A stretch of DNA of 64,000 nucleotides from an uncultured Verrucomicrobiae bacterium (lineage in GTDB: Bacteria > Verrucomicrobiota > Verrucomicrobiia > Chthoniobacterales > Chthoniobacteraceae). The notes under the pieces are model-generated. The model saw only the letters and a list, made by a program, of their open reading frames with translations. It did not search any database and had not been told where the DNA came from. Numbering within the stretch: the first letter of the stretch is position 1; each line of letters starts with the position of its first letter. This document shows positions 10,020 to 42,119 of the stretch, piece by piece. The position numbers were made by a program, and so were the translations under genes. The stretch is taken from assembly GCA_963769025.1 (NCBI GenBank), contig CAVYKI010000002.1:256001-320000 (forward strand). Reading direction: 5' to 3'.

Positions 10020-11150
10020 ATGTCCAAAAAAGATCGCATCAACGTCGCCATCGTCGGCCTCGGATTCGGCGCCGAGTTCATCCCGCTCTACCAGCGGCAT
10101 CCGAATGCGAACATGTATGCCATCTGCCAGCGCGACCCGAAGAAGCTGAATGCGGTGGGCGATGCGTTCGGGATCGCGGTGCGCTACACGGATTTCAAGG
10201 AGCTGCTGAAGGATCCGAAGGTGGACGCGGTGCATATCAATTCGCCGATCCCGGACCACGGCTGGATGAGCGTCGCCGCGCTGAAGGCGGGCAAGCACGT
10301 GAGCTGCACGGTGCCGATGGCGACGAGCATCGCGGACTGCAAGAAGATCGTGGACCTCGTGAAGCAGACCGGCCTGAAGTACACGATGGCCGAGACGGTG
10401 GTGTACGCGCGGGAGTATCTTTTCATGAAGGAGCTGCTCGACAGCGGGAAGCTCGGGAAGCTGCAGTTCGTGCAGGCGAGCCATCAGCAGGACATGGACG
10501 GGTGGCCGAATTATTGGCCCGGCCTTCCGCCGATGTGGTACGCGACGCATTGCGTGGGCCCGGTGTCGGGACTCGTCGGCGCCCCGGCGGAATATGTGTC
10601 GTGCTTCGGCAGCGGGACGATCCGCAAGGAACTTGTGAAGAACTACGGTTCGCCGTTTGCCGTCGAGACGGCGCACATCAAATACAAGGGCACCGACGTG
10701 AGCGCGCGGATCATCCGCAGCCTGTTCGACACGGCGCGGCAGTATCGCGAGAGCATTGACGTTTACGGCAGCAAGGCGTCCGTCGAGTGGCCGCTCATCG
10801 AGCACCAGCCGCTCGTGCTGCACACGGCGAAGCTGCCCGAGCCGAAGATCCCGACGCTCATCAAGACGCCCGACTTTGCGAAGCGTCTGCCGAAGGCGCT
10901 GCAGCCTTTCACCACCGGCGGCGTGTATGGCGGCAAGGGCAAGAAGGGCCACCGCTCTTTCACCCAAGGCGCAGGGCATGGCGGCTCGCATCCGCACCTC
11001 GCGAATGAATTCGTGATGTCGCTCGTCGAGAACCGCGACCCGTTTCCCAATGCGAAGCAGTCCGCAAACTGGACCTGCGTCGGCCTCTGCGCCCACGAGA
11101 GCGCGCTCAAGGGCGGCGCGATCGTGAAGCTCCCGAAGTGGACGCTCTGA
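10020..11150 (+). CDS. Gfo/Idh/MocA family oxidoreductase
   Basis: [22 protein letters not shown] (variant of the EKP motif), GHGGSHPHL. Confidence 0.88.
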
Positions 11151-11190
11151 TTTTCCCCGAACAACCACCACACCCACTCCTCACCACATC

Positions 11191-13170
11191 ATGTCAGCAA
11201 AAACTGAAGGCATCGCACCCAACGCCAGCCGGCTCCTCTGGGCCGGATTCATGGCCATCCTCGCCGCCGGCGTCGGCTTCGCCATCCGCGGCGGCATTTT
11301 CGACAACTGGGGAGGCGAGTTCGGCTTCACCGGCGCGCAACTCGGCGCCATCGGCGGCGCCGGCTTCTCCGGCTTCTGCTTCGGCATCATCATCGGCGGC
11401 GTCGATCGTGCGACAAGATCGGCTACGGCAAGCTGGTCATCGTCGCCTTCGCCCTGCCATCTGCTCTCGGCATTCGTCACCTTTGGCGCCACGCACACCG
11501 GCGAACGCCTACAGCTTCCTTTTCTGGGGCATGTTCATCTTCGCGTTCGCCAACGGCACGCTCGAAGCCGTCGCCAATCCGCTCGTCGCCACGCTCTATC
11601 CGAACAATCGCACGCACTACCTGAACATCCTGCACGCGAGCTGGCCCGCGGGCATGATCATCGGCGTCGTGCTCGGCTGGTTCCTCGACGACAAACTGCA
11701 GCTCAACTGGAAGCTCCAGCTCGCGCTCTACCTCGTGCCCACGGTGCTCTACGGCCTCATGTTCATGGGGCAGAAGTTCCCGAAGTCCGAGGCAGCCGGA
11801 AAAGGGCGCCAGCTTTGGGCAGATGTTCAAGGACGTCGGCATCCTCGGCGCCGCTCGTGGTCTGCTTCCTCCTCTCGCAGTTCTTCGCGGGCATCCTCAA
11901 GCTCTGGCCGACCGGCAACGCCGACCTGATCGGCTACGCCATCGGCGGCGTGCTTGCTGATCGTGCGTCGGGCGTCATCACGAAGTTCTCCCTCGGTTCG
12001 GTCCTGCTCTTCGTCCTCTTCGTCACGCACGCGCTGGTCGGTGCGGTGGAACTCGGCACGGACGGCTGGATTCAGAACATCACCGGCAACCTCTTCACCT
12101 CCGAGCAGGGCAAGTCTCTCTTCCTCTGGACCTCCGCGATCATGTTCAGCCTGCGTTTCTGCGCGCACTTCATCGAGAAGACGCTGAAAATCTCGCCGGT
12201 CGGACTGCTCCTGCTGTGCTCCGTGCTCGCGTTCGTCGGCCTGCAGCTCGCCAGCGGGATGAACACCTTCGCCATGGCGCTCGTCGCGCTCGGCATCTAC
12301 GCCGTCGGCAAGACGTTCTTCTGGCCCACCATGCTCGCCGTCGTCGTCGGACCGCTATCCCGCGCACCGGCGCGGTGGCCATGTCGCATCATGGGCGGCA
12401 TCGGCATGCTCTCCGCCGGCCTCATCGGCGGCCCCGGTCTCGGCTACGCGAAGGACCGTTTCGCCGGCGAAAACCTCAAGGAAATCAACGAAGCCGCCTA
12501 CGCGGAATACAAGGCCGAGCAGCCCAGCAAATTCCTGAACATGGAAGCCTCGGCGGCCTACGGTCTCGATGGCAAGAAGCTCGGCGAAGTGCAGTCCACC
12601 CTGCTCACCGCGCGCAAACTGCTGCCCAAGGGCGGGCCGGACACCGAGAACGAGAAGCTCTCCGAAAGCACGAAGAAGGCGGAGGCGGAAATCAAGGCCC
12701 TCGGCGAAAAGGCGCAGAAAATCGCGGCTGACGAAAAGGCCATCGAGACGGAACTGGCGGGCCTGACCGCCAAGGGCGTCCAGGAATGGGATCGCGAATA
12801 CGAAGCCGTCGCGGAACGCGGCATCGCGCTGAACCTGCAGGAGAAGAAGCTCGATGCGGACCGGAAGAAGCTCGAAGAGCAGATCGCGGCGAACGTGAAG
12901 CAGAAGGAACTGCTCCGCACGCTCGAGTCCAAGCTCTCGAAAGCCGGGGTCCTCAAGCCCGAAGGCAATCCGAACCTCGGCGCGGCGCTCGCCGCCCTCA
13001 CTCCCGAGGAGCGCGCCGTCCACAAGGCGAGCATCACGGGCGACCGCAAGACGCTCAAGGCCGACTCCTACATCCCCGCGACCATGGCGCTGATCTACCT
13101 GCTGATTCTCCTGTATTTCAAGAGCATCGGCGGATACCGGGCCGTCCACGTGGACGAACAAAAGGCGTAA
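11191..13170 (+). CDS. MFS transporter (PVC sugar-transporter type) with multiple compensating frameshifts and a long coiled-coil insert
   Basis: TM segments are split over frames: [20 protein letters not shown]; (alt frame) [55 protein letters not shown]. Confidence 0.8.
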
Positions 13171-13192
13171 CGCAGCGCCGGCAATTCCAGCG

Positions 13193-13230
13193 ACGGGGCA
13201 CGGTGAAAGCCGTGCCCCGTTTTGCTTTTC
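13193..13230 (+). terminator. Intrinsic terminator after MFS gene
   Basis: Perfect 11-bp stem ACGGGGCACGG/CCGTGCCCCGT with a TGAAAG loop, followed by TTTGCTTTT. Confidence 0.75.
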
Positions 13231-13252
13231 GCGTGGGAAGTGCTGCAGAAAA

Positions 13253-13279
13253 CCTTCGCGCCCCTCGCGCCCTTCGTGG
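13253..13279. repeat. Three tandem degenerate 9-mers (CCTTCGCGC CCCTCGCGC CCTTCGTGG)
   Basis: Directly visible, intergenic, just upstream of the UbiA-family gene. Confidence 0.5.
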
Positions 13280-13296
13280 TTCAACATCCACCGCAC

Positions 13297-14295
13297 ATGC
13301 CCACGAAACTCCGCGCCTGGCTGCAACTCTTCCGCGTCCCCAACCTATTCACGGTCCCGGGCGACCCGCTCGCGGGCTTTCTCATCGCCACTGGCGGCCG
13401 TCTCGATTCGCGCGTGGTGCTCGCCATCCTTGCGAGCCTCTTCCTCTACGCCGCTGGCTTGGCGATGAACGACCTCGCGGATTTCAAGGAAGACCAGCGC
13501 GAGCGGCCGAAGCGTCCGCTGCCAAGCGGTGCCATCCCGCGCGCCGCCGCTTGGCTCGTCACCGGCAATCTCGTCATCTTCGGCCTTGGCATGTGTTTCA
13601 TGGCCGGGCCCGCGGTGGTGCTCATGGGCCTCGGGACGCTTCTCGGCGTGGTGCTCTACAATTTCCTCACCAAAAGAATCCCCGTCGTCGGCGCGCTGAA
13701 CATGGGCGTCTGCCGCGGGTTCAGCCTGCTCATTGGCGCTGCCGCGGGCCTCGCGCCCGATCCGACGCTGCTTGAGGGCGCGTCGCAGCTCGCACCTTTC
13801 CAGCCCGTGCTCGCCGCGATGCTCGCCGGACTCGCACCGATGAGCGGTCAGCGGTTCTTCGTCTTTGCGATCGGCGCAGCGCTGATCATTTCGATCTACA
13901 TCGCCGCGGTCACGAACCTCGCGCGCTTCGAGACGCGCCGCGATTACCCACGGCTTCCTCGCATCCTGCCGCTGGGTGCGCTGCTTCTTGGTTTCGTCGT
14001 GCTGAAACAGGCGACCGATACCCTGCTGCGCGATTCATCACCCGCGCTCTGGCTCGTCGCGATCATCCTTTGCGCGATGAACACCGCCGAGATCATGCGC
14101 GACCCTCCCGCGCCGCTGCCGCCGCGCATCGGCGCGTTCATCCGCATCATGCCGGTCCTGCAGGCCGCGCTGTGCATTTTGCCCAGCGTGCCGACGGGAT
14201 TTCGCAAGACGCCGGAAAGTCTCATCGCTGCGCTCGTGCTGCTCGCGTGTGTGCCGATCCACGGCTGGCTGGGGAAAAAGTTCTACTCGAGTTGA
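13297..14295 (+). CDS. UbiA-family prenyltransferase (EboC-like)
   Basis: [36 protein letters not shown]sp-rich motif, MGVCRG, multiple TM helices. Confidence 0.8.
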
Positions 14296-14351
14296 GGCCG
14301 CTCCGAACTGCGCGCTTGCCTCGCGTCGCACGTTCGGGATTCGCTCTGCCC

Positions 14352-15290
14352 ATGAAACACCGCCCCTCCAGCATCTCCGCCGATTGGTGGGATTACACCT
14401 GCCTGCCAAAGGATCTCGTGGATGACGTCGCAAGGCTCACGCCGCGCGACATCGAGAAGCTCAGCCGCCCCGGTTTCCGCGTCGTGATGTACGACACGCT
14501 CGAAGATTTCTACCTCGCCGAGGCGCTCGAATACATCGACGCGTGGCGGCAGAGCACGGACGACAATCCGGTCGGCATCTGCGGCCCCATCGGCCCCACG
14601 GAGCAGCTCCCGCTCGTCGCGCGGCTCGTGAACGAACTCGAGATCCCGGTGCGCAGCGGACACTTTTGGGGAATGGACGAATGGTTCGATCCGGCGACGG
14701 GCAAGGAGGTGCCGGTGACGCACCCGCTTTCATTCGAGAAGGCGGATCGCGAGATGTGCTTCAACCGCATCGCGAAAAACCTCCGCATCCCGGACGCGCA
14801 TCTCCATTTCCCGAAGGCTGACACGCGCGCCTACCGCGCGAGCTGGGATGCCGGCGTGAGCTGCGCGGTGATGCAGGGCGGGCAGGGGGACGTGAAGCAC
14901 TGGGCGTTCAACGATCCGCTGCCGCGTCGCGGGAAGTACAAGGCCGCCCCGCCGACGCCCGCGGAGTATCGCAAGCTCACGACGCGGATGGTCGAGCTGC
15001 ACCCGCTCACCATCGCGCAGAACGCGCGCACCAGCGGCGGCGGCAACATTTCGATGATCCCCACGCAGGCGATCACGGTCGGGCCGTTCGAGACGTGGAA
15101 GGCGGAGAAGGTCTCCATCTGGCAGGCGGGCTGCCACGACAATCCCTTCGGCCAGCGGCTCACGGCGTTCATGATTTCCAAGCGCATCGCCGACGCCTGC
15201 GTGCCGATGTCGCTCCTCGCGGATCACCCGAACGTGCAGTTCAATTACTACCGCGGAGGCATCGGCTCGTGCGCGGTGGAGATGCACTGA
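14352..15290 (+). CDS. Glucosamine-6-phosphate deaminase/isomerase-like protein (divergent NagB fold)
   Basis: [50 protein letters not shown]. Confidence 0.75.
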
Positions 15291-15302
15291 GCGGCGCGGC
15301 GG

Positions 15303-16052
15303 CTACGGCTTTATGTGCGACACGCGCAGTTGCGAAATCAGCACTGTGCCTGCCGACTGGCCGCGGTCGCCCTTGGAGGGATTGGACTGCGTGTAGCACC
15401 CGGCCTTGAAATAGCAGCCTTCTGCGCGTGTCTCCCACGTCATCGCGAGCCGGTCGTCGCACCAAACGCGGATGCTGCCGCCGCCTGCTTCGACCTTCAG
15501 CCTTACGGGGTCACCTGGCCGGTAGTTTTCCTTGAGCAACACATTCCCGGTCTTGTTGCGCTCGACAAACATCCGCCGCCCTTCCACCCGGATCATCATC
15601 ACATCATCGTTCGCATCGTGGATCTGTGCGCACACCACGTGCGGCTTTTTTTCCGGCAACTGGAGCACGGCCAGCGTCACTTCCATGCGGTGGATGATTC
15701 CGTCATCCGTCGCCCAGGAAGCCCCTTTCTTCGCATCCCGCATTTCGCGGAGTTCCGATCTCGGGTAACGCGAGCCCTTCGTCGTCGCGCCGTCCGCAGG
15801 TGCACGGAAGACGACCCCCGCGCCATCGGCAGCGATGTGAAAAAATGCGGCATCGGTGAAGGTCGCGAGTCCGGGCTGAGTGATCTCCCGCGCGTGCTTC
15901 GAGCCTTGCCCGGCGACCGGAAGGGTCAGTTTCCAAAGACTCAGATCGAGGACTTTTGACGGAAGCTTTGCCGGTGGTGCCGGAGGCGGTTCCTTCGCGA
16001 CAGCGGTCGTGGTGCAGAGCGTGACGGACAGGACGAAAAGCGAAAAGCGCAT
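15303..16052 (-). CDS. Secreted polysaccharide lyase family 7 (alginate lyase-like)
   Basis: Signal peptide plus PL7 motifs WKLTLP, RSELRE, QIH and YFKAGCYTQ. Confidence 0.88.
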   Translation of the reverse strand: MRFSLFVLSVTLCTTTAVAKEPPPAPPAKLPSKVLDLSLWKLTLPVAGQGSKHAREITQPGLATFTDAAFFHIAADGAGVVFRAPADGATTKGSRYPRSELREMRDAKKGASWATDDGIIHRMEVTLAVLQLPEKKPHVVCAQIHDANDDVMMIRVEGRRMFVERNKTGNVLLKENYRPGDPVRLKVEAGGGSIRVWCDDRLAMTWETRAEGCYFKAGCYTQSNPSKGDRGQSAGTVLISQLRVSHIKP

Positions 16053-34861: not shown

Positions 34862-36244
34862 TCAGGACTTCGAGGACGCCTTGAGGGGCTTGCCTTCGAT
34901 CTTCCGGTAAAGCGTCGCCATGCTGATGCCGAGCGTCTTCGCGGCCTTCTCGCGGTTGCCGGAGCTGCGCTTGATGGTTTCCTCGATGAAGCGCCGCTCC
35001 TGATCGCGGATGAAGGCATCCAGCTTCTTGCCGACCGGCATCGCGCCGTCGCCGCCTTTTCCGCTGCCGGACGGGCCTTCGAGGAGCTGCGGCGGGAGAT
35101 CCTTCACGAGGATGAGATCCTCGTCGCACAGCGCGCTCGCGCGCTCGATGGCGTTTTCCAGTTCACGCACATTGCCCGGCCAGTCGTAGCCCTGGAGCGC
35201 CTCGATGGCCTTCGGGTCGATTTTCATCGCGCGCGGATTCGGCCCGGTGGCGGACTTTTTCAGGAAATGCTGGACGAGGAGCGGGATGTCCTCGGGCCGG
35301 TCGCGCAACGGCGGCAGCTCGATGGGAATGACCGCGAGCCGGTAGTAGAGATCCTCGCGGAACTTGCCGTCCTTCACCTTGTCGAGCAGCGACTCGTTCG
35401 TCGCGCCGAGCACGCGCACATTGATGGGCAGCGTCTTCGTGTCGCCGACGCGGCGGAGCTGGCGCTCCTGGAGCACGCGGAGCAGCTTCGTCTGGAGCGG
35501 CAGGGCCATCGAGTTCACCTCGTCGAGGAAAATGGTGCCCTTTTCCGCCTCCTCGAAGAGCCCCGCCTTGTCCGACACCGCACCGGTGAAGGAGCCCTTC
35601 TTGTGGCCGAACAGCTCGCTCTCGAGCAGGTTCTCCGGCAGCGCGGAGCAGTTGATGGCGACGAAGGGATGATGCTGCCGGCTGCTGTTGAAATGCAGCG
35701 CCCGCGCGACGAGCTCCTTGCCCGTGCCGCTCTCGCCCTGGATCAAAATCGTCGAGTCGGTGTCCGCGATCTTGCGGATGAGGTGATAGACCTCGTCCAT
35801 CTTCGGCGACGTGCCGATGATGTTCTCCGGGTTCGTCGCGCGCTTCACGACCTTCTTCAGCGTGTCGCGCTCCTTCGCCGTGTCGGAAAACTCGATGACG
35901 TGCTTCACCCGCGCCTGCATCTCGGAAATCTTGAACGGCTTGCGGATGTAATAGCGGGCACCCTCGGCGATGGCCTTTTCCGCGATCTCCTCGTTGCCCT
36001 GCCCGGTCATCAGGATCACCTCGCAGCTCTCCAGCGCCGCCTTGACCTGCCGCAGGATCTCGAAGCCGTCCACCTTGCCCATCTTGATGTCGCTGATGAC
36101 GAGCGCCGGCGCGATGGTCTCGATCTGTTCGAGCGCCTTCTGGCTGTTGGTGAAGGGGAACGTCTCGTGGCCCATCTCCTTGCAGGCTGTGACGACGAGT
36201 TCGACGATGTTCGGTTCATCGTCCACGATAAGGATCTTGGCCAT
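34862..36244 (-). CDS. Sigma54-dependent response regulator (NtrC family: REC-AAA+-Fis HTH)
   Basis: ILIVDDE, GESGTGKE, ESELFGH, GSFTGA, FLDE, FREDLYYRL, WPGNVREL, AAKTLGISMATLYRK. Confidence 0.95.
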   Translation of the reverse strand: MAKILIVDDEPNIVELVVTACKEMGHETFPFTNSQKALEQIETIAPALVISDIKMGKVDGFEILRQVKAALESCEVILMTGQGNEEIAEKAIAEGARYYIRKPFKISEMQARVKHVIEFSDTAKERDTLKKVVKRATNPENIIGTSPKMDEVYHLIRKIADTDSTILIQGESGTGKELVARALHFNSSRQHHPFVAINCSALPENLLESELFGHKKGSFTGAVSDKAGLFEEAEKGTIFLDEVNSMALPLQTKLLRVLQERQLRRVGDTKTLPINVRVLGATNESLLDKVKDGKFREDLYYRLAVIPIELPPLRDRPEDIPLLVQHFLKKSATGPNPRAMKIDPKAIEALQGYDWPGNVRELENAIERASALCDEDLILVKDLPPQLLEGPSGSGKGGDGAMPVGKKLDAFIRDQERRFIEETIKRSSGNREKAAKTLGISMATLYRKIEGKPLKASSKS

Positions 36245-36364: not shown

Positions 36365-36988
36365 CTAGGCGGACGTTTTCATGCCGAGCCGCTTGCGGAC
36401 GCTGTTCTCAAACTGGAACAGCGGATGCATGAGCGAGGCCACGGAATCGGGGAGAAGGTTCGGGCCGCGCGGGCCGTCGGGGGCGGTCTTTTCCAGGAAA
36501 AGGAGGGAGCCGGCGAGTTCGAGGCGGTGGTAGTTCCGGTTGTTCGCCAGAAAGTAGTCGGCGGCCCACTTTACCGAGCGCAGGCGCGGCGTGTAGTCGT
36601 GCAGCGCGAGGATGCCGTTGGGGTTCACGAGCGCCGCCCAGTGCAGGTCCTGCATCACGTAGCGGAACTTGTGGGTGCCATCGATGAGGACAAAATCGAA
36701 CGACTCAAGGACCCGCCGGGAATGCCGGAAGGCGTCCCAGCTTCGCATCTCGCGGAATTCCACGGTGTCGAGCGGGAGCCCGTGCGAGGTGACATTCTGC
36801 TCCACGACCTGCCGCTGGTTGGCGAAATAGTTCATCGTGTCGATGACGACGAAGGGCGGCCGGTGCGGTGTGGCCTGCATCATTTCGCAGAGCGTGCCGC
36901 CGGCTGCGGTGCCGATTTCCAGGTGCCTGCCGGGCCGCGGGCGTGCGCGCAGAATGCTCCGGAGCGCCTCCAGTTCCGGCTGGGTCAT
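36365..36988 (-). CDS. Class I SAM-dependent methyltransferase (Methyltransf_24-like)
   Basis: HLEIGTAAGGT, VVIDT, FDFVLIDGTH, GILALHDY. Start may be 37024. Confidence 0.82.
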   Translation of the reverse strand: MTQPELEALRSILRARPRPGRHLEIGTAAGGTLCEMMQATPHRPPFVVIDTMNYFANQRQVVEQNVTSHGLPLDTVEFREMRSWDAFRHSRRVLESFDFVLIDGTHKFRYVMQDLHWAALVNPNGILALHDYTPRLRSVKWAADYFLANNRNYHRLELAGSLLFLEKTAPDGPRGPNLLPDSVASLMHPLFQFENSVRKRLGMKTSA

Positions 36989-37077
36989 TTCCGAGGTTAG
37001 CTGCGTCGCGCAAGGGCGTTCCATCCGCGGCGATGTTCGGCACTGCGCGCGGCGCGCGCAAGAAAAACTCCGGGCTT

Positions 37078-40000
37078 TCAGCCTTTGCGCGCGGCGAACT
37101 GCGCGGCGGCGTGCTCCAGCCAGCCGGCATCCGGCGCCGCGTAAGGGCGGAAGGTTTCCAGCGAACCGGCCTGCTCGTTGTAGAGCAGCGCGCGGTGCAG
37201 GCCGAGGTTGCTCGCCTTCGGCGAATCGATGAGGCTCGCGGAGTCGTTCGCGCTCATCTGGAAGACGATCCGCATTTCAAATTCGCTCAGCGCCTTCCGG
37301 CTCATCGTGCGGTTGACGTTGTTGAACGAGTCCACCGTCGCGATGATGTGGATGCCGAGCGCGCTGCCTTCCGAGATGATCTCGTTGAACGCGGCGCCGG
37401 GGCTCGACTCGCCGTCGCCGCCACCGAAACTGAAGTCGTCCTCGTGGCGCAGCTTCTTGAATTTGTGCAGGCCATGGACAAACAGGAACACCGATGGCGC
37501 ACCCGCGGCCGGCGTCTCGCCGCTCGCGCGCGCCTTCATCTCGGTGGAAAGATTGCCCAGCACCTCGGGAATCTCCTGCGCGGTGGCGAGCGTGACAGCC
37601 TCCGGCATCATCGCCGCGACCTGTTCGAGCAAAGCGGCGTCCGGCGTCCCGGGCGTCGCGGAGTGGATCAAAATGCACCGCACCGCTCCCGGCGGATGCT
37701 GCGCGGCAAGCGCGACGATGGAGAGCGCGACCATCGTGAGCGCGGCTTCCTCGCGCTGGCCGACGATGAGCAGGTGGTTCCCGCTCTGGCGGTGAAATGC
37801 CGCCTCCGTCGGCCCCTTGATCGAATTTGGCGCTCCGAACCAGCAACGCGCCGCGGCCGGAGGCGCAGTCGGAGGCGAGGCGAGCGCGGCGGCGAGCAGA
37901 TCGTTCTCGCGGATGCTGGCGGGCGCGTTGCCCTCGAAGACGATCGCGCTTCGCTGCGGCTCATGGCGCTCGTCGGCGAGCGCACGGACCTTGTCGAGCC
38001 ACTTGTCGCGCTCGTCGTCGGGCAGCCAGACGACCTGGAAGGGGCTGTTGCCCTCGATGGCGCCGCCCGCGTCGTTGTAGATGCCTTCGCCGGGCCGCGA
38101 GAGGAGGCGCGGGGCGGAGTTCGTGTCGTCCATGATGAGATACGCGTCGGCCTCGTTGCACTGCAGCGCGACGCGGATGACCATCTGCCCGAGCGTCGCG
38201 CGGGCGAGCGAATACGCGCCGCCGAGGCTCTGCGAGCCGAGCAGCACGTGGATGCCAAAGGCGCGGCCCTGCCGCACGATGCGGTCGAACAGCAGCGAGG
38301 CCGTCTGCGCGATGCTGTCGTCCTCGACGAAGAACTCCTGGAATTCGTCAATCAGCAGCAGCGAGCGCGGCATCGGCTCCGTCCCGCCGGCGCGCTTGTA
38401 GCCCGCGACGTCCTGCACGCCGAGCTTGCGGAACATGTCGCCGCGCCGCTTCAGCTCCTCGTCCACGCGCTGGAGGACGCTGAGCGCGAATTCCCGGTCG
38501 CTCTCGATCGCCACGACGCGCGCGTGCGGCAGCCGCTTGTTCGCGTAGCATTTGAATTCGACGCCCTTCTTGAAATCGATGAGGTAGAACTCCACCTGCT
38601 CCGGCGAGCACGCGAGCGCGAGATTCGTGATGATCACGTGGAAGAGCGTGGATTTTCCCGATCCCGTCTTGCCTGCGAAGAGCGCGTGCTGCCGCGTGCC
38701 CTTGCCGATGGCGAGATACTGCATCTTCGTCGCGCCGGTGCGGCCGATGGGGATGCGCAGTTCGTTCGTCGTCTCGTTCGTCCAGAGTTCCGCCGGCTTC
38801 GGCGCGATCTGCTCGAACGGCACCTGCACGCGGTTCGAGTCCACGCTGCTCTTGCCGATTTTGTGGACGAGGCTCTGCGCGAGCGCGGCGTCCGGCGGCG
38901 GGTCGAGCACGAGCGCTGCGCCGGCCTCGGCCTGCTCGCGGCCGGTGGTGAAAGTGTTCCCCTCGGCGCGCAGGCACACGCTGCTCTTCCGCAATTCCTC
39001 CACGGAAAACCCGTCCGGCAGCGGCTGGCGCTGGTCCCAGTGGATCAGCGTAAATACCCCGCAGCGCGGCCCGCTGATGGCGATGCTCTGCAGCCGCTTC
39101 GCCGCAGTCTCGCTGAAGCCGGAGGGAAAGTCCGCGATGACGAGGAAATAGTATTTTTCCGCCACGCTGCCCGCCTGCTCGTTGTAGGCGGTGATGTTCG
39201 CGTACTCGTTGCGCAGATACATCTGGATGACTTTCTCGATGTGTTCGTTGATCTCGCCGAGCCGCTCGTCGAGCTGCTCGCGCTGCGTCCAGATGCGGCG
39301 GTTGATGATGGCCTCCTCGTAGTCGCCGAGGTGCATGAGCCCCGCGAAATTTTCGCCGAGGCCGACGGGATCGAAAATGGTGAAGCTGAGTTTCCCCGGC
39401 GGAGTCGTCGAGAGCAGCCGGAGGATCACGTTGTTCAGCACGCTCATCGTCGCACCGCCGCACGATTCGCGCGTCTCAAAAAGCAGCGAGCCCTGCTGCG
39501 GATACGTGAGCGCGAGCGGGATGGACACCTGCGGCGGCCCGGGCAGCGCGAGCCGCGAGACGGCGGTGGAGGCATCGGGCCGCTTTGCAAGGTCGAGGCT
39601 CAGTTGCGCGAATTTCGTCGCCGGTGTGAACTTCACGCGCGGCTCCCATTCCTCGACAACGCGCGCGGTCCACTCGGGGAAATCCGGCGCGAGCGCGGCG
39701 TTCAGTGCGGCGATTTCCTCGTAGAGCGGCGTGATCTCCGCCTTCCACGCCGCGTCGAGTTCGTCCCACCTCGCCTTCTCATTCGCGAGGATGGCGCTCA
39801 TTTCGGATGCGCGGGCGGCTTCCACCTCGCGCCGTTTTTCGGCGGTGCGTTGCTGGAATTCCCGCACCTTCGCATCCGTGCGGGAACGGACTTCCGCGAG
39901 CTGCCGGCGAAGGCGCTCCTGGAGTTTTTGCGTGAGCCTCGGGAGTTGCGGTTCGAGCTTTTGCCGGCCCTTCTGCTCGAATTCCGCCTCGAGGTTGTCC

Positions 40001-40968
40001 GCCTTTGCCCATTTGGTTTCGAGGTCGGCAAACGTCCGGTCGTATTCGTCCTGCAGGCGCTGGCGTTCGGCCTTGTGCTGTGCTTCGGCGGCGGCGATGC
40101 CCGCCCGGAGCGCGCGAAACGCATCGAGGATCGCCGCGCCCGTTTTTTCCGCCTCGGCCTTCGCGCCGTTCCGGCCGGTGACGTAGGCGAAAATGCAGCC
40201 GGCGGTGAGGAGCACCGCCACGGCCGCGCCCGCGACGTAAAGCGGCGCGGAAAGGCCGCGCGCGAAGACGACCGCGACGCCGATGAGCACGGCAAGCACG
40301 ATGCACACTGGCAGCGGCATCGCGCTGAAAAGGCGCGGCAGCGGCAGCGCGCGGAATGTCGCGAGCTGCTCCGTCGCGGCGGCGATCCGGGATTCGATCT
40401 CGCCCTGGAAATCATCAGGCGCGTCGGCGATCCGCCTTTCACCCTCGCGCTCGGTCAGCGTCTGCGCGAACGAACTGTAGCCGCTGAAGGCCTTCACGGT
40501 TTGCGCCGTGATGCCGTCGAGCGCCGCGCGTTGCTGGGCGAGCGTCTGCGACAGCGCGGCGTGGTCGCCGTCGTTCTTCTTGGTGCCGGCGGTGTGGGCG
40601 CGCTCGGCGCGGAGCTGGCGCATCTGGAGTTCACCCAGCCAGTTTCCCTTCGCATCCTGTGCGCGCTTGGGGAGCGTGCGCGTCAGAAGCCCATGGGCGC
40701 GCTGCACTCGGCCGAGCCGGCGATCATGGATTTCCTGGAGCCGCTCGGCCTCCTTTGCGGAAAGGGCTTCCGCCTCTGCGATCTGCGCGGCGAGCGCGCC
40801 GTCGTCCTTGTGCATCGCCTCGCGGTGCCGCCGCATTTCCTGATAGTTCCGCGCGGAAAGCGTGCTGGTCAGCTCCGCTTCCTTTTTCGCAAACGCCGCG
40901 ACCGTCCTCGTCAGCCTCGCGAGGAGCTCGAGCGCATGGGAAAATCGCAGATCGGGGCCGCTACTCAC
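37078..40968 (-). CDS. Membrane-anchored FtsK/SpoIIIE-family ATPase, EccC/EssC-like
   Basis: Coiled coil, TM hairpin, coiled coil, then three ATPase-fold domains. Intact Walker A GKTGSGKS (38650-38673) and Walker B LLLIDEF, plus IDFKKG and RQGRAFGIH. GTG start overlaps the upstream gene's 3' end. Confidence 0.88.
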   Translation of the reverse strand: MSSGPDLRFSHALELLARLTRTVAAFAKKEAELTSTLSARNYQEMRRHREAMHKDDGALAAQIAEAEALSAKEAERLQEIHDRRLGRVQRAHGLLTRTLPKRAQDAKGNWLGELQMRQLRAERAHTAGTKKNDGDHAALSQTLAQQRAALDGITAQTVKAFSGYSSFAQTLTEREGERRIADAPDDFQGEIESRIAAATEQLATFRALPLPRLFSAMPLPVCIVLAVLIGVAVVFARGLSAPLYVAGAAVAVLLTAGCIFAYVTGRNGAKAEAEKTGAAILDAFRALRAGIAAAEAQHKAERQRLQDEYDRTFADLETKWAKADNLEAEFEQKGRQKLEPQLPRLTQKLQERLRRQLAEVRSRTDAKVREFQQRTAEKRREVEAARASEMSAILANEKARWDELDAAWKAEITPLYEEIAALNAALAPDFPEWTARVVEEWEPRVKFTPATKFAQLSLDLAKRPDASTAVSRLALPGPPQVSIPLALTYPQQGSLLFETRESCGGATMSVLNNVILRLLSTTPPGKLSFTIFDPVGLGENFAGLMHLGDYEEAIINRRIWTQREQLDERLGEINEHIEKVIQMYLRNEYANITAYNEQAGSVAEKYYFLVIADFPSGFSETAAKRLQSIAISGPRCGVFTLIHWDQRQPLPDGFSVEELRKSSVCLRAEGNTFTTGREQAEAGAALVLDPPPDAALAQSLVHKIGKSSVDSNRVQVPFEQIAPKPAELWTNETTNELRIPIGRTGATKMQYLAIGKGTRQHALFAGKTGSGKSTLFHVIITNLALACSPEQVEFYLIDFKKGVEFKCYANKRLPHARVVAIESDREFALSVLQRVDEELKRRGDMFRKLGVQDVAGYKRAGGTEPMPRSLLLIDEFQEFFVEDDSIAQTASLLFDRIVRQGRAFGIHVLLGSQSLGGAYSLARATLGQMVIRVALQCNEADAYLIMDDTNSAPRLLSRPGEGIYNDAGGAIEGNSPFQVVWLPDDERDKWLDKVRALADERHEPQRSAIVFEGNAPASIRENDLLAAALASPPTAPPAAARCWFGAPNSIKGPTEAAFHRQSGNHLLIVGQREEAALTMVALSIVALAAQHPPGAVRCILIHSATPGTPDAALLEQVAAMMPEAVTLATAQEIPEVLGNLSTEMKARASGETPAAGAPSVFLFVHGLHKFKKLRHEDDFSFGGGDGESSPGAAFNEIISEGSALGIHIIATVDSFNNVNRTMSRKALSEFEMRIVFQMSANDSASLIDSPKASNLGLHRALLYNEQAGSLETFRPYAAPDAGWLEHAAAQFAARKG

Positions 40969-41170
40969 AATCGTTGTGCACCTTTCTGAGCAGGACGCTG
41001 ATCTCATCCATCGCCGTCGCCGTGCGGGCCGTGAGGTTCGGCAGCCGTTCGAGGTAGTTGTGCTCGAACTCGTCCGCCTTCACGTCGCGCCAGTGAGCCT
41101 TCGTCTGCTCCCATTTCTGGGACAGTTCCTTGAAAGCCTGCGCGAGGGTGGCGTTGCCTTCTTCACTCAT
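40961..41170 (-). CDS. Short WXG100-like helical hairpin protein (W-R-D), 69 aa
   Basis: LAQAFKELSQKWEQTKAHWRDVKADEFEHNYL: amphipathic helices around a W-x-D turn. Overlaps both neighbours. Confidence 0.7.
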   Translation of the reverse strand: MSEEGNATLAQAFKELSQKWEQTKAHWRDVKADEFEHNYLERLPNLTARTATAMDEISVLLRKVHNDCE

Positions 41171-41706
41171 GGATTTGCGTCGGTTTCACTCGATGGCGCC
41201 TCCGGCGCGGCGGGAGCGGGTTCGCCGGCGGGAGCGGAGCGCTCGGCGTAGGCATCGAGGATCTCGCGGGCTCGGTAGAGGAAGGTGATCGCATCCGGCA
41301 TTTCCTGATCGAGGTAATCCCGGAAGCCGTCGAGCTTCTTCACGAGCGGATCGGCCGCGGCGTCGAAGTTCTGGTTCCACTTTTTCACGTTCCGCAGCTT
41401 TTGGTGCGCCTCCTCGACCGCCGCCTTCGCCTTTCGTACGACCGCCTCGCGCATCGCGATGGCGCCGGTCATCTTCGTGAGTCGCGCGCTGTAAAGTTCC
41501 TGCACGGCCTGGTCGAGCAGCCGCTGCCTGCGCCGGATTTCCCCCTCCCAATGCATCCGCTGGTCGTGCTGCAGCCAGTTCCGCGTCCGCCGCACGCGGT
41601 CGCGCACGGTGTCCACGGACTGCCGCGCCTTCGTCACGAAAATGACCATGCTCGCGCGCAACGCATCGAGCGCATCGACCGACGTGACCCTTGCCTGCGT
41701 GCCCAT
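41167..41706 (-). CDS. Elongated WXG100-like coiled-coil protein (W-E-G), 179 aa
   Basis: N-terminus (QARVTSVDALDALRASM) and C-terminus (AREILDAY) parallel the upstream WXG100 protein. Contains HWEG; all-helical. Confidence 0.6.
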   Translation of the reverse strand: MGTQARVTSVDALDALRASMVIFVTKARQSVDTVRDRVRRTRNWLQHDQRMHWEGEIRRRQRLLDQAVQELYSARLTKMTGAIAMREAVVRKAKAAVEEAHQKLRNVKKWNQNFDAAADPLVKKLDGFRDYLDQEMPDAITFLYRAREILDAYAERSAPAGEPAPAAPEAPSSETDANP

Positions 41707-41713
41707 TGGGTGA

Positions 41714-41741
41714 GTTGAGAGTTGAAGGTTGAGAGTTGAGA
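41714..41741. repeat. Heptamer tandem repeat (GTTGAGA x4, one variant)
   Basis: GTTGAGA GTTGAAG GTTGAGA GTTGAGA, ending 7 nt upstream of the 41706 start codon on the minus strand. Confidence 0.8.
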
Positions 41742-41778
41742 GGTCGGAGAATGGATCGCACTGCCTGCGTCGGGACGG

Positions 41779-42051
41779 TCAGCGCTGGTCGAGGTATTCC
41801 TCGATGCGCTGCGCCTTCCGCAGCAGGTAGGGCGTGTGCTTCTCCGCGATCTCCACGAATTTCTTCAGCACCTTCATCGTGGTGATGAACTCCTCGGCAA
41901 ATTTCTCCGCCTCCTGATCCTGCCACGAGCTGCCCAGCGCCGCGAACCGCGCCTGAAGCGATCCCGCCTTCGCCTGCACGTCGTCGTTGAAACGTTTCAG
42001 CTCCTTCGCAAACCGGCGCACTTCTTCTGGGTCGATGATTGCCTGGGCCAT
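41779..42051 (-). CDS. WXG100 family (ESAT-6/EsxA-like) protein, 90 aa
   Basis: MAQAIIDPEEVRRFAKEL..LGSSWQDQEAEKFAEEF..KAQRIEEYL: the typical I-D-P-E-E start, central W-x-[G/D]..A..F...F, and about 90-100 aa length. Confidence 0.88.
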   Translation of the reverse strand: MAQAIIDPEEVRRFAKELKRFNDDVQAKAGSLQARFAALGSSWQDQEAEKFAEEFITTMKVLKKFVEIAEKHTPYLLRKAQRIEEYLDQR

Positions 42052-42091
42052 GGTCGTGGATTTCTGGGGTTGGGGAGCGGGAGACGAAGGA

Positions 42092-42119
42092 ATGATAACG
42101 CCCGGCCCGTGCAGTTCAA
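42092..42119 (-). promoter_or_regulatory. Sigma70-like promoter of the WXG100-FtsK operon
   Basis: Minus strand TTGAAC-N16-TATCAT, about 40 nt upstream of ATG 42051. Confidence 0.55.

Follow-up and report, generated by a model that had tools for sequence, protein, structure and literature searches.

Besides the type VII secretion systems (T7SS) of Gram-positive bacteria, whose variants are covered by Garrett et al. (2024, PMC11217815), smaller sets built on the same components have been described. A footnote to Table 1 of Zhang et al. (2012, PMC3482391) names a solo WXG protein with a three-domain, YueA-like ATPase active in its middle domain in planctomycetes and verrucomicrobia, and the module is termed a mobile T7SS there. 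Bell et al. (2024, PMC11090510) describe a membrane-free, nuclease-bearing form in defence operons (CoCoNuT/TerY-P) and cite Anantharaman 2012 for stand-alone copies, and in Helicobacter WxG plus FtsK has been presented as the minimal T7SS set (Uchiyama et al. 2016, PMC4978471). WXG100 proteins in Verrucomicrobia are attributed to Sutcliffe 2011 in PMC6471051, and a secretion-system survey (PMC4793230) omitted ESX as absent from diderm bacteria with lipopolysaccharide (LPS diderms). Here, we analyze a stretch of 64,000 nucleotides (the window) from an uncultured Verrucomicrobiae bacterium of soil and freshwater type (contig CAVYKI010000002.1), which holds an operon of four genes, A to D, encoding a WXG100 protein, two further small hairpin proteins and an FtsK-family ATPase (Table 1). 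Hereafter, L-numbers denote related loci and G-numbers genomes, G000 being the genome of the window.

By its sequence, the operon is a member of the module formed by a solo WXG protein and a three-domain, middle-active FtsK ATPase, and by its components it is not a member of T7SSa or T7SSb. A description of it as a stripped-down T7-like module in a diderm bacterium of the Planctomycetota-Verrucomicrobiota-Chlamydiota (PVC) group has held up, with canonical partners not found and no toxin or immunity gene present; the novelty it implied has not, as the module already appears in Zhang et al. (PMC3482391) and its anatomy in Bell et al. (PMC11090510). By analogy, the operon probably works like a reduced T7SS. 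We think there is an even chance that it is a stand-alone, toxin-free translocase of this kind which moves its own hairpins across the inner membrane, because of the EccC homology of the ATPase, the WXG100-type substrates, the carrier homology of one hairpin protein and a recurring membrane anchor.

The identities first assigned to the two hallmark proteins were recovered by the domain searches, since both pass their Pfam cut-offs: A that of WXG100 (PF06013; E 3.9e-10, 40.3 bits, cut-off 27.3) and D that of FtsK_SpoIIIE (E 2.5e-31). D consists of an N-terminal arm (~205 aa), two membrane helices (~210-265) that leave almost no periplasmic loop, a second arm and three RecA-type domains, namely a degenerate domain, an active FtsK domain (Walker A ~766, Walker B ~870, RQGR ~899) and a degenerate terminal domain; the arms are predicted to be helical. 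Intact Walker A, Walker B and RQGR motifs occur only in the middle domain (motif columns of 47 aligned sequences), and the C-terminal 826 residues model as three alpha/beta domains. The best fold match of D is EccC of T. curvata (4NH0, E 5.9e-30), ahead of FtsK, and its active domain scores best against the first ATPase (ATPase 1) of EccC. The RecA-type domains of EccC number four, counting the degenerate first domain. The first two RecA domains of D would correspond to this degenerate domain and ATPase 1, with one later domain lost. With 126.9 bits against TIGR03924 (cut-off 509) and 100.9 against TIGR03925 (cut-off 347), D is, at the sequence level, homologous to EccC but not an equivalog. 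An assignment of D as the DNA translocase FtsK/SpoIIIE was rejected, as it reaches only 31 bits against the FtsK equivalog NF007615 (cut-off 1566) and a separate, far stronger FtsK-family match lies on contig C3 of G000.

Among the small proteins, A finds its best PDB sequence match in HP0062 of H. pylori (3FX7, E 3.2e-7), and in both the hairpin bend is W-x-D rather than W-x-G. Neither B nor C has a Pfam or NCBIfam match at cut-off. The structure model of B (predicted local distance difference test score, pLDDT, 91) has helices at residues 7-77, 80-134 and 136-157, so that B comprises approximately 157 folded residues (a long hairpin plus a short third helix) and a Pro/Ala-rich tail. Assigning B to a family by fold was tried without success, the Foldseek search giving no match at E<=0.001 and only generic hairpins (best Z 11), with no LXG or Lap structure standing out. 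Homologues of B measure 163-269 aa in 82 loci, and a long C-terminal extension was absent in all examined genome (82) and metagenome locus sets. A deep profile of B nevertheless aligns with the first 138 residues of the 314-aa protein in the corresponding slot of a Rhodococcus plasmid cassette (probability 91.4, E 8.9e-7), compared with E 0.19 for a reversed control and 0.14 or worse for four coiled-coil controls. Because of this homology to the N-terminal part of a longer protein, B is best read as a carrier without cargo. The original prediction, in which B figured as a coiled-coil protein, had missed that related cassettes encode longer proteins with a carrier part to which B corresponds. 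A link from B to the coiled-coil-nuclease proteins of TerY-P cassettes is no more than suggestive, with E 0.0015 by profile and 0.006-0.06 for single sequences, and profile comparison detected no homology to the slot proteins of Helicobacter and Deinococcus. In C, W27 and D29 of a W-x-D motif are invariant in 38 sequences; its profile aligns with that of A over 35 columns (probability 50, E 1.6e-4) and weakly with the small slot proteins of other cassettes (best E 0.004, Rhodococcus). By analogy, C may pair with B. The expectation that the small proteins are hairpins accompanying the ATPase is thus borne out in that B models as a hairpin and the four genes are retained together.

The canonical partners had been reported missing beside the locus, and wider searches agree. 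EccB, EssB and EsaA were each found in 0 of 26 family genomes, and EccD, YukD and EssA were not found in G000, which is 83% complete, while positive controls were recovered in both cases (for EssB, EsaA, EssA and YukD, the B. subtilis control was positive each time). The search for mycosin (MycP) in G000, also with a positive control, gave only subtilase matches below cut-off, LXG (PF04740) gave no match there, and EccE was found in 0 of 26 genomes in a search whose control set also gave nothing. A complete canonical T7SS elsewhere in G000, which would have spoken against the first interpretation, was thus not found in the available 83%, and the operon itself holds no toxin or immunity gene. 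A is the sole WXG100 match in G000.

These searches bear on the idea of a contact-dependent toxin exporter whose cargo genes lie elsewhere, their carriers diverged or unassembled, with B and C serving as general adaptors. The nuclease and immunity pairs of family members in other lineages and the incompleteness of the genome fit this idea, and a weak lead to cargo comes from an Atlas cluster (353 aa, score 0.82), 64% of whose members are Imm33-like. The B profile, however, has exactly one match in each of the 32 genomes that carry it, no longer B homologue was found among 8000 candidates (weak evidence; the best 150 of 2490 B representatives measure 125-265 aa), and the weak extra WXG100 matches in three relatives (G306, G463 and G484) fit no profile of A, B, C or D. 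We therefore regard a hidden cargo as improbable. Two of these weak matches sit in long membrane-protein open reading frames (ORFs), and the second WXG100 match of G463, a member of the family (L195, G463:C14:299000-315000), lies near Tad/Flp-pilus-like genes and may be foreign or misbinned. An extra B-profile match in G000 (E 0.047) was rejected as orphan cargo; it falls in an open frame of near-perfect 7-residue repeats (G000:C13:21843-22556, minus strand), possibly a repeat on the non-coding strand.

The four-gene order is well conserved among related loci, as the suggested neighbourhood survey has shown. Among the best 80 genome loci for A, A is 80-98% identical, and all four genes match in 75, contiguously in 74; the five exceptions comprise two loci at contig ends, L054, which ends 300 bases past B, and L025 and L059, which lack the downstream genes nearby. 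All 80 loci are from Verrucomicrobiota, with the closest relatives by A in Chthoniobacterales. The 80 metagenome loci examined belong to a subgroup that is more distant; 48 of them have enough sequence, and in all 48 A is followed by B and C, with the N-terminus of D next in 28 of 30. Of 201 genomes of the order, 32 have B, each in one copy (a count that includes G446), as do 14 of 23 genomes of the family; its presence is largely all-or-none by genus. A phylum survey found a related ATPase in 12 of 301 genomes, eight of which have the long membrane-anchored form. The Atlas clusters offer a lead, and only a lead, that the anchored form is common in Planctomycetota. Cultured, non-pathogenic carriers include Chthoniobacter flavus Ellin428 (L040) and Verrucomicrobium sp. 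BvORR106 (L058) and BvORR034 (L076).

In two genomes of one genus, G169 and G268, D lies apart from A-B-C and all four genes are kept (L108/L109 and L192/L193). The nearest flanking genes in 47 loci are mostly housekeeping; one of 81 ORFs is defence-like (DrmD-like), six further PADLOC matches in the flanks come from domains of generic type (regulator, WD40 or kinase), and none was obtained for A, B or C. The operon occurs in one copy among housekeeping genes and is retained even where it is split, so that it does not look mobile at present, judging from sequence. None of nine pattern matches in viral contigs encodes a relative of A. In a quick, unrooted tree with long-branch warnings, 35 four-gene rows group together (SH-aLRT 97); since family labels are mixed within this clade, some transfer of the operon between lineages is possible.

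A patchy distribution such as this (12 of 301 genomes for any form), together with the interrupted L017 and the missing downstream genes of L025 and L059, might be expected of a relic, decaying after a mobile toxin cassette had lost its effector. In L017, a 4.7-kb insert (11000-15700) splits C from D; the insert comprises an ORF resembling DNA methyltransferases, a stretch rich in repeats and, on the plus strand, an ORF for a probable surface protein. The catalytic motifs of D are intact, however, the cargo-free layout is the same across lineages at 48% ATPase identity, and synonymous codon differences exceed non-synonymous ones in seven of eight gene comparisons (A-D against L001 and L006), so that all four genes look to be under purifying selection. 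The relic is accordingly very improbable and already largely refuted.

Cassettes in other lineages show what the PVC form lacks. D matches the plasmid ATPases of Caballeronia, Helicobacter, Rhodococcus and Deinococcus over 55-66% of the query, and the A profile matches the WXG proteins of these cassettes (E 2e-20 to 7e-4). In Caballeronia, L103 and L104, the cassette comprises genes for a WXG protein, a coiled coil with a nuclease-like tail, a small acidic protein, a small hairpin protein and the ATPase, and adjoins VWA genes; phosphatase and kinase genes come next in Caballeronia and L103. The Helicobacter plasmid cassette (L099) has a WHH nuclease and an SMI1/KNR4 gene in the corresponding slots. 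A helical carrier joined to a nuclease, with an adjacent immunity-type gene, resembles the layout of exported toxins. The ATPases of other lineages are mostly without a membrane helix, a point missed in the original prediction. A membrane helix lies within D in 69 of 71 members of the clade; in L101, L105, L106, L107 and L198, whose ATPases mostly lack one, a neighbouring gene encodes it. No module gene has one in L098, L099, L100, L103 and L104, where the B-slot protein has an extra C-terminal domain. A rule of 'anchor or effector, never both' was considered and dropped, as it held in five of six extended-slot cassettes and was broken by L198.

This pattern also bears on a role in abortive infection or stress suicide, in which the membrane hairpin of D would replace the nuclease of the TerY-P/CoCoNuT forms and A, B and C would act as sensor or inhibitor. 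Related cassettes do lie in TerY-P and CoCoNuT loci, and five of the six extended-B-slot cassettes lack a membrane helix where four other cargo-free cassettes and the PVC clade have one. The pattern fails in L198, which has an extended, toxin-like protein as well as a membrane-anchored coiled coil encoded next to the ATPase; moreover, the anchor/effector rows are few and related, and the flanks of the operon are hardly defence-like (one ORF in 81), with A, B and C unmatched in PADLOC. We consider this role unlikely.

Three of these cassettes have further features of their own. In L198 (1752-9969, Rhodococcus pseudokoreensis plasmid), the ATPase gene follows Hsp70, TPR and GrpE-like genes, and downstream of it lie genes for the membrane-anchored coiled coil, a small helical protein, the 272-aa protein, whose C-terminus is toxin-like, and a small protein that may confer immunity. 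In L100 (7721-16836, Rhodococcus sp. AH-ZY2 plasmid), the N-terminal domain of the ATPase appears TerD-like by eye, and the gene stands beside annotated TerD-family genes. L106 (6154-11735, G041) contains two tandem ATPase homologues, the second shorter, with VWA, phosphatase-like and kinase-like genes downstream; G041 also holds a second cassette, L105.

Returning to the export of the operon's own hairpins, the proposed course would be as follows. A would form a dimer, by analogy with EsxA, and B and C would pair up and, on their own or together with A, form a helical rod, as in LXG-Lap complexes (PMC9600955). In a hexamer of D, the degenerate terminal domain would bind this rod, the middle domain would use ATP to push it along the helical arms, and the membrane helices of D itself would build the pore, through which the rod would cross the inner membrane and emerge in the periplasm. 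As B carries no cargo and the operon has no linked outer-membrane partner, the product would be the hairpins themselves (or a cargo so diverged that it escapes detection), with a function in the envelope and not in killing neighbours. Binding, hexamer formation and transport in this scheme are extrapolated from the known systems. The scheme is supported by EccC being the best structural match of D, by the WXG100 identity of A, by co-retention of the four genes even when split (G169, G268), by the exported-toxin layout of related cassettes, to one of whose N-terminal parts (Rhodococcus) B is homologous, and by recurrence of the anchor inside D or in a neighbouring gene.

Several observations weigh against it. 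The five anchor-free cassettes suggest that the family can persist without a pore of its own, a point also made by Bell et al. (PMC11090510). The three RecA domains and long arms of D are unlike EccC. Neither a cargo gene nor, by profile, a second copy of A, B or C was found in the 83%-complete G000, and the neighbourhood survey found no channel partner or outer-membrane gene conserved beside the operon. Finally, no experimental study of the PVC form and no demonstrated export for the family were found in the main texts of openly accessible papers.

Because there is no cargo and no linked channel partner, and several relatives are without anchors, a remodelling role is the main rival to export. 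D would then be a non-secretory, inner-membrane-tethered remodeller that assembles, loads or dismantles complexes or filaments of the A, B and C hairpins on the cytoplasmic face, in envelope stress or membrane shaping. It may be likened loosely to Vps4 acting on ESCRT-III. Such a role would suit the membrane-free relatives (see also PMC11090510), the absence of both cargo and a periplasmic domain, the unusual conservation of A, the single-copy state in all 32 positive genomes of 201 and the housekeeping flanks of the operon. The fold list of B includes ESCRT-III and YscO hairpins, although at Z ~10-11, which is the tool's range for a common helical arrangement, and a domain-library scan detected no PspA-family match for B. 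Besides, the best-studied homologues in the family export WXG100 proteins, and a search of 23 family members did not detect the operon in 9. We judge remodelling less likely than export, though the likeliest of its rivals.

The history of the operon may be sketched tentatively. The PVC form could be a domesticated offshoot of a mobile toxin-export cassette that dropped effector and immunity genes, built a two-helix anchor into the middle of the long arms of the ATPase and took on an envelope function of its own, pumping or remodelling hairpins; we hold this to be possible, short of probable.

Table 1. Features of the operon in the window (positions count from the first letter of the window)
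Feature	Position	Strand	Description
Gene A	41779-42051	minus	90-aa WXG100-family hairpin, WxD bend, HP0062-like, EsxA equivalent
Gene B	41167-41706	minus	179-aa long helical hairpin; carrier-like domain without C-terminal effector
Gene C	40961-41170	minus	69-aa short WXG100-like protein; putative partner of B
Gene D	37078-40968	minus	1296-aa EccC/EssC-like ATPase
Promoter candidate TTGAAC-N16-TATCAT	42092-42119	minus	sigma-70-like, upstream of A; weak
7-bp tandem repeat, A-B spacer	41712-41744		period 7, 4.4 copies, score 48

The layout of the operon agrees with the first description of four co-oriented genes in sizes, strand and overlaps. B and C overlap by 4 bases and C and D by 8, and a gap of 72 bases separates A from B. 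D starts with GTG for the length given in Table 1, and its open frame extends to an ATG at 41007. The GC content of the operon (0.64-0.68) is similar to that elsewhere in the window. An LPS-diderm host is very likely, because G000 carries lpxC and the closest relatives are Chthoniobacterales, which upholds the diderm assignment over a monoderm origin of the contig. As for the promoter-like site, the sequence is present as first noticed, but it stands at chance level (found 1, expected 0.5), and none of 79 related loci has a site of >=9/12 within 150 bases upstream (2.6 expected); by eye, TTGAAC-N16-TAnnnT is retained in 4 of 10 printed upstream regions of relatives. The heptamer repeat in the A-B spacer is probably not part of the mechanism. 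Short heptamer tandem repeats are found in intergenic spacers of the Chthoniobacterales loci: the array of the window lies between A and B, and in L002 and L008 similar sequence lies upstream of A.

A methyltransferase gene and a divergent hydrolase-like ORF flank the operon in the window. The former (class I, 36365-37024) lies between D and a sigma-54 response regulator gene (34862-36241) and may be a later insertion, because the regulator directly follows D in L002 and L007. A fifth conserved operon gene was sought and not found, the commonest neighbour cluster (sigma-54 regulators, 11 loci) being a generic family.

The operon of the window is one more typical copy, and its value is that of a testable model, not of a discovery. 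With one membrane protein and three hairpins, the cassette offers the simplest natural setting for the question of whether WXG100 proteins can be moved across a membrane by an EccC-like ATPase alone. The survey cited above (PMC4793230) leaves ESX out of LPS diderms and comparative papers list the module there, and no test of either view was found. If the domestication scenario is true, two-membrane bacteria would have a toxin-free machine derived from type VII secretion and built on a single membrane protein. A cargo-free, membrane-anchored and apparently settled PVC state was not found described, and the supplements of Bell et al. 2024 and Zhang et al. 2012 may already treat PVC members in greater detail. 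What is new is that B, which has no C-terminal domain, is homologous to the N-terminus of a longer protein in a related cassette, and that the operon is immunity-free, single-copy, surrounded by housekeeping genes and kept when split, with no second carrier found in the 83%-complete genome.

Compared with T7SSa (EccC) and T7SSb (EssC), the operon has the membrane-bound FtsK-type ATPase and WXG100 protein common to all T7SS (PMC11217815). It differs in that D falls below the curated EccCa, EccCb and EssC cut-offs and has three RecA-type domains, that no EccB, EccD, EssA, EssB, EsaA, YukD, mycosin or LXG was found, and that the host has an LPS outer membrane. A long helical protein beside small WXG-like proteins recalls the LXG-Lap1-Lap2 complexes (PMC9600955); B and C resemble this arrangement by analogy only, and PF04740 has no match in G000. 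The form reported by Bell et al. (PMC11090510) likewise has three ATPase domains with the central one alone active, a long N-terminal coiled coil, two WXG100-like proteins and a coiled-coil protein. In the account given there, however, the ATPase is without membrane helices, of which D has two, and the coiled coil forms a fusion protein with a D-ExK nuclease, after which a DNA-mimic gene comes, whereas here B is bare, C follows it directly, and there is no DNA mimic, immunity gene or TerY-P. The Helicobacter plasmid homologue L099, which is not the H. pylori chromosome locus, differs in having a shorter ATPase with no clear membrane helix and in carrying the WHH nuclease and SMI1/KNR4 gene. 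HP0062, the best solved relative of A, has the W-x-D bend too and is a dimeric hairpin protein of a diderm, its gene being clustered with one for an FtsK-domain protein. The description by Zhang et al. (PMC3482391) shares the WXG protein and the three-domain, middle-active ATPase with the operon and names verrucomicrobia and planctomycetes as carriers. Its footnote mentions neither B, C nor the membrane hairpin, and where the module is called mobile, the operon examined here is single-copy, genus-coherent, GC-matched and set in housekeeping surroundings.

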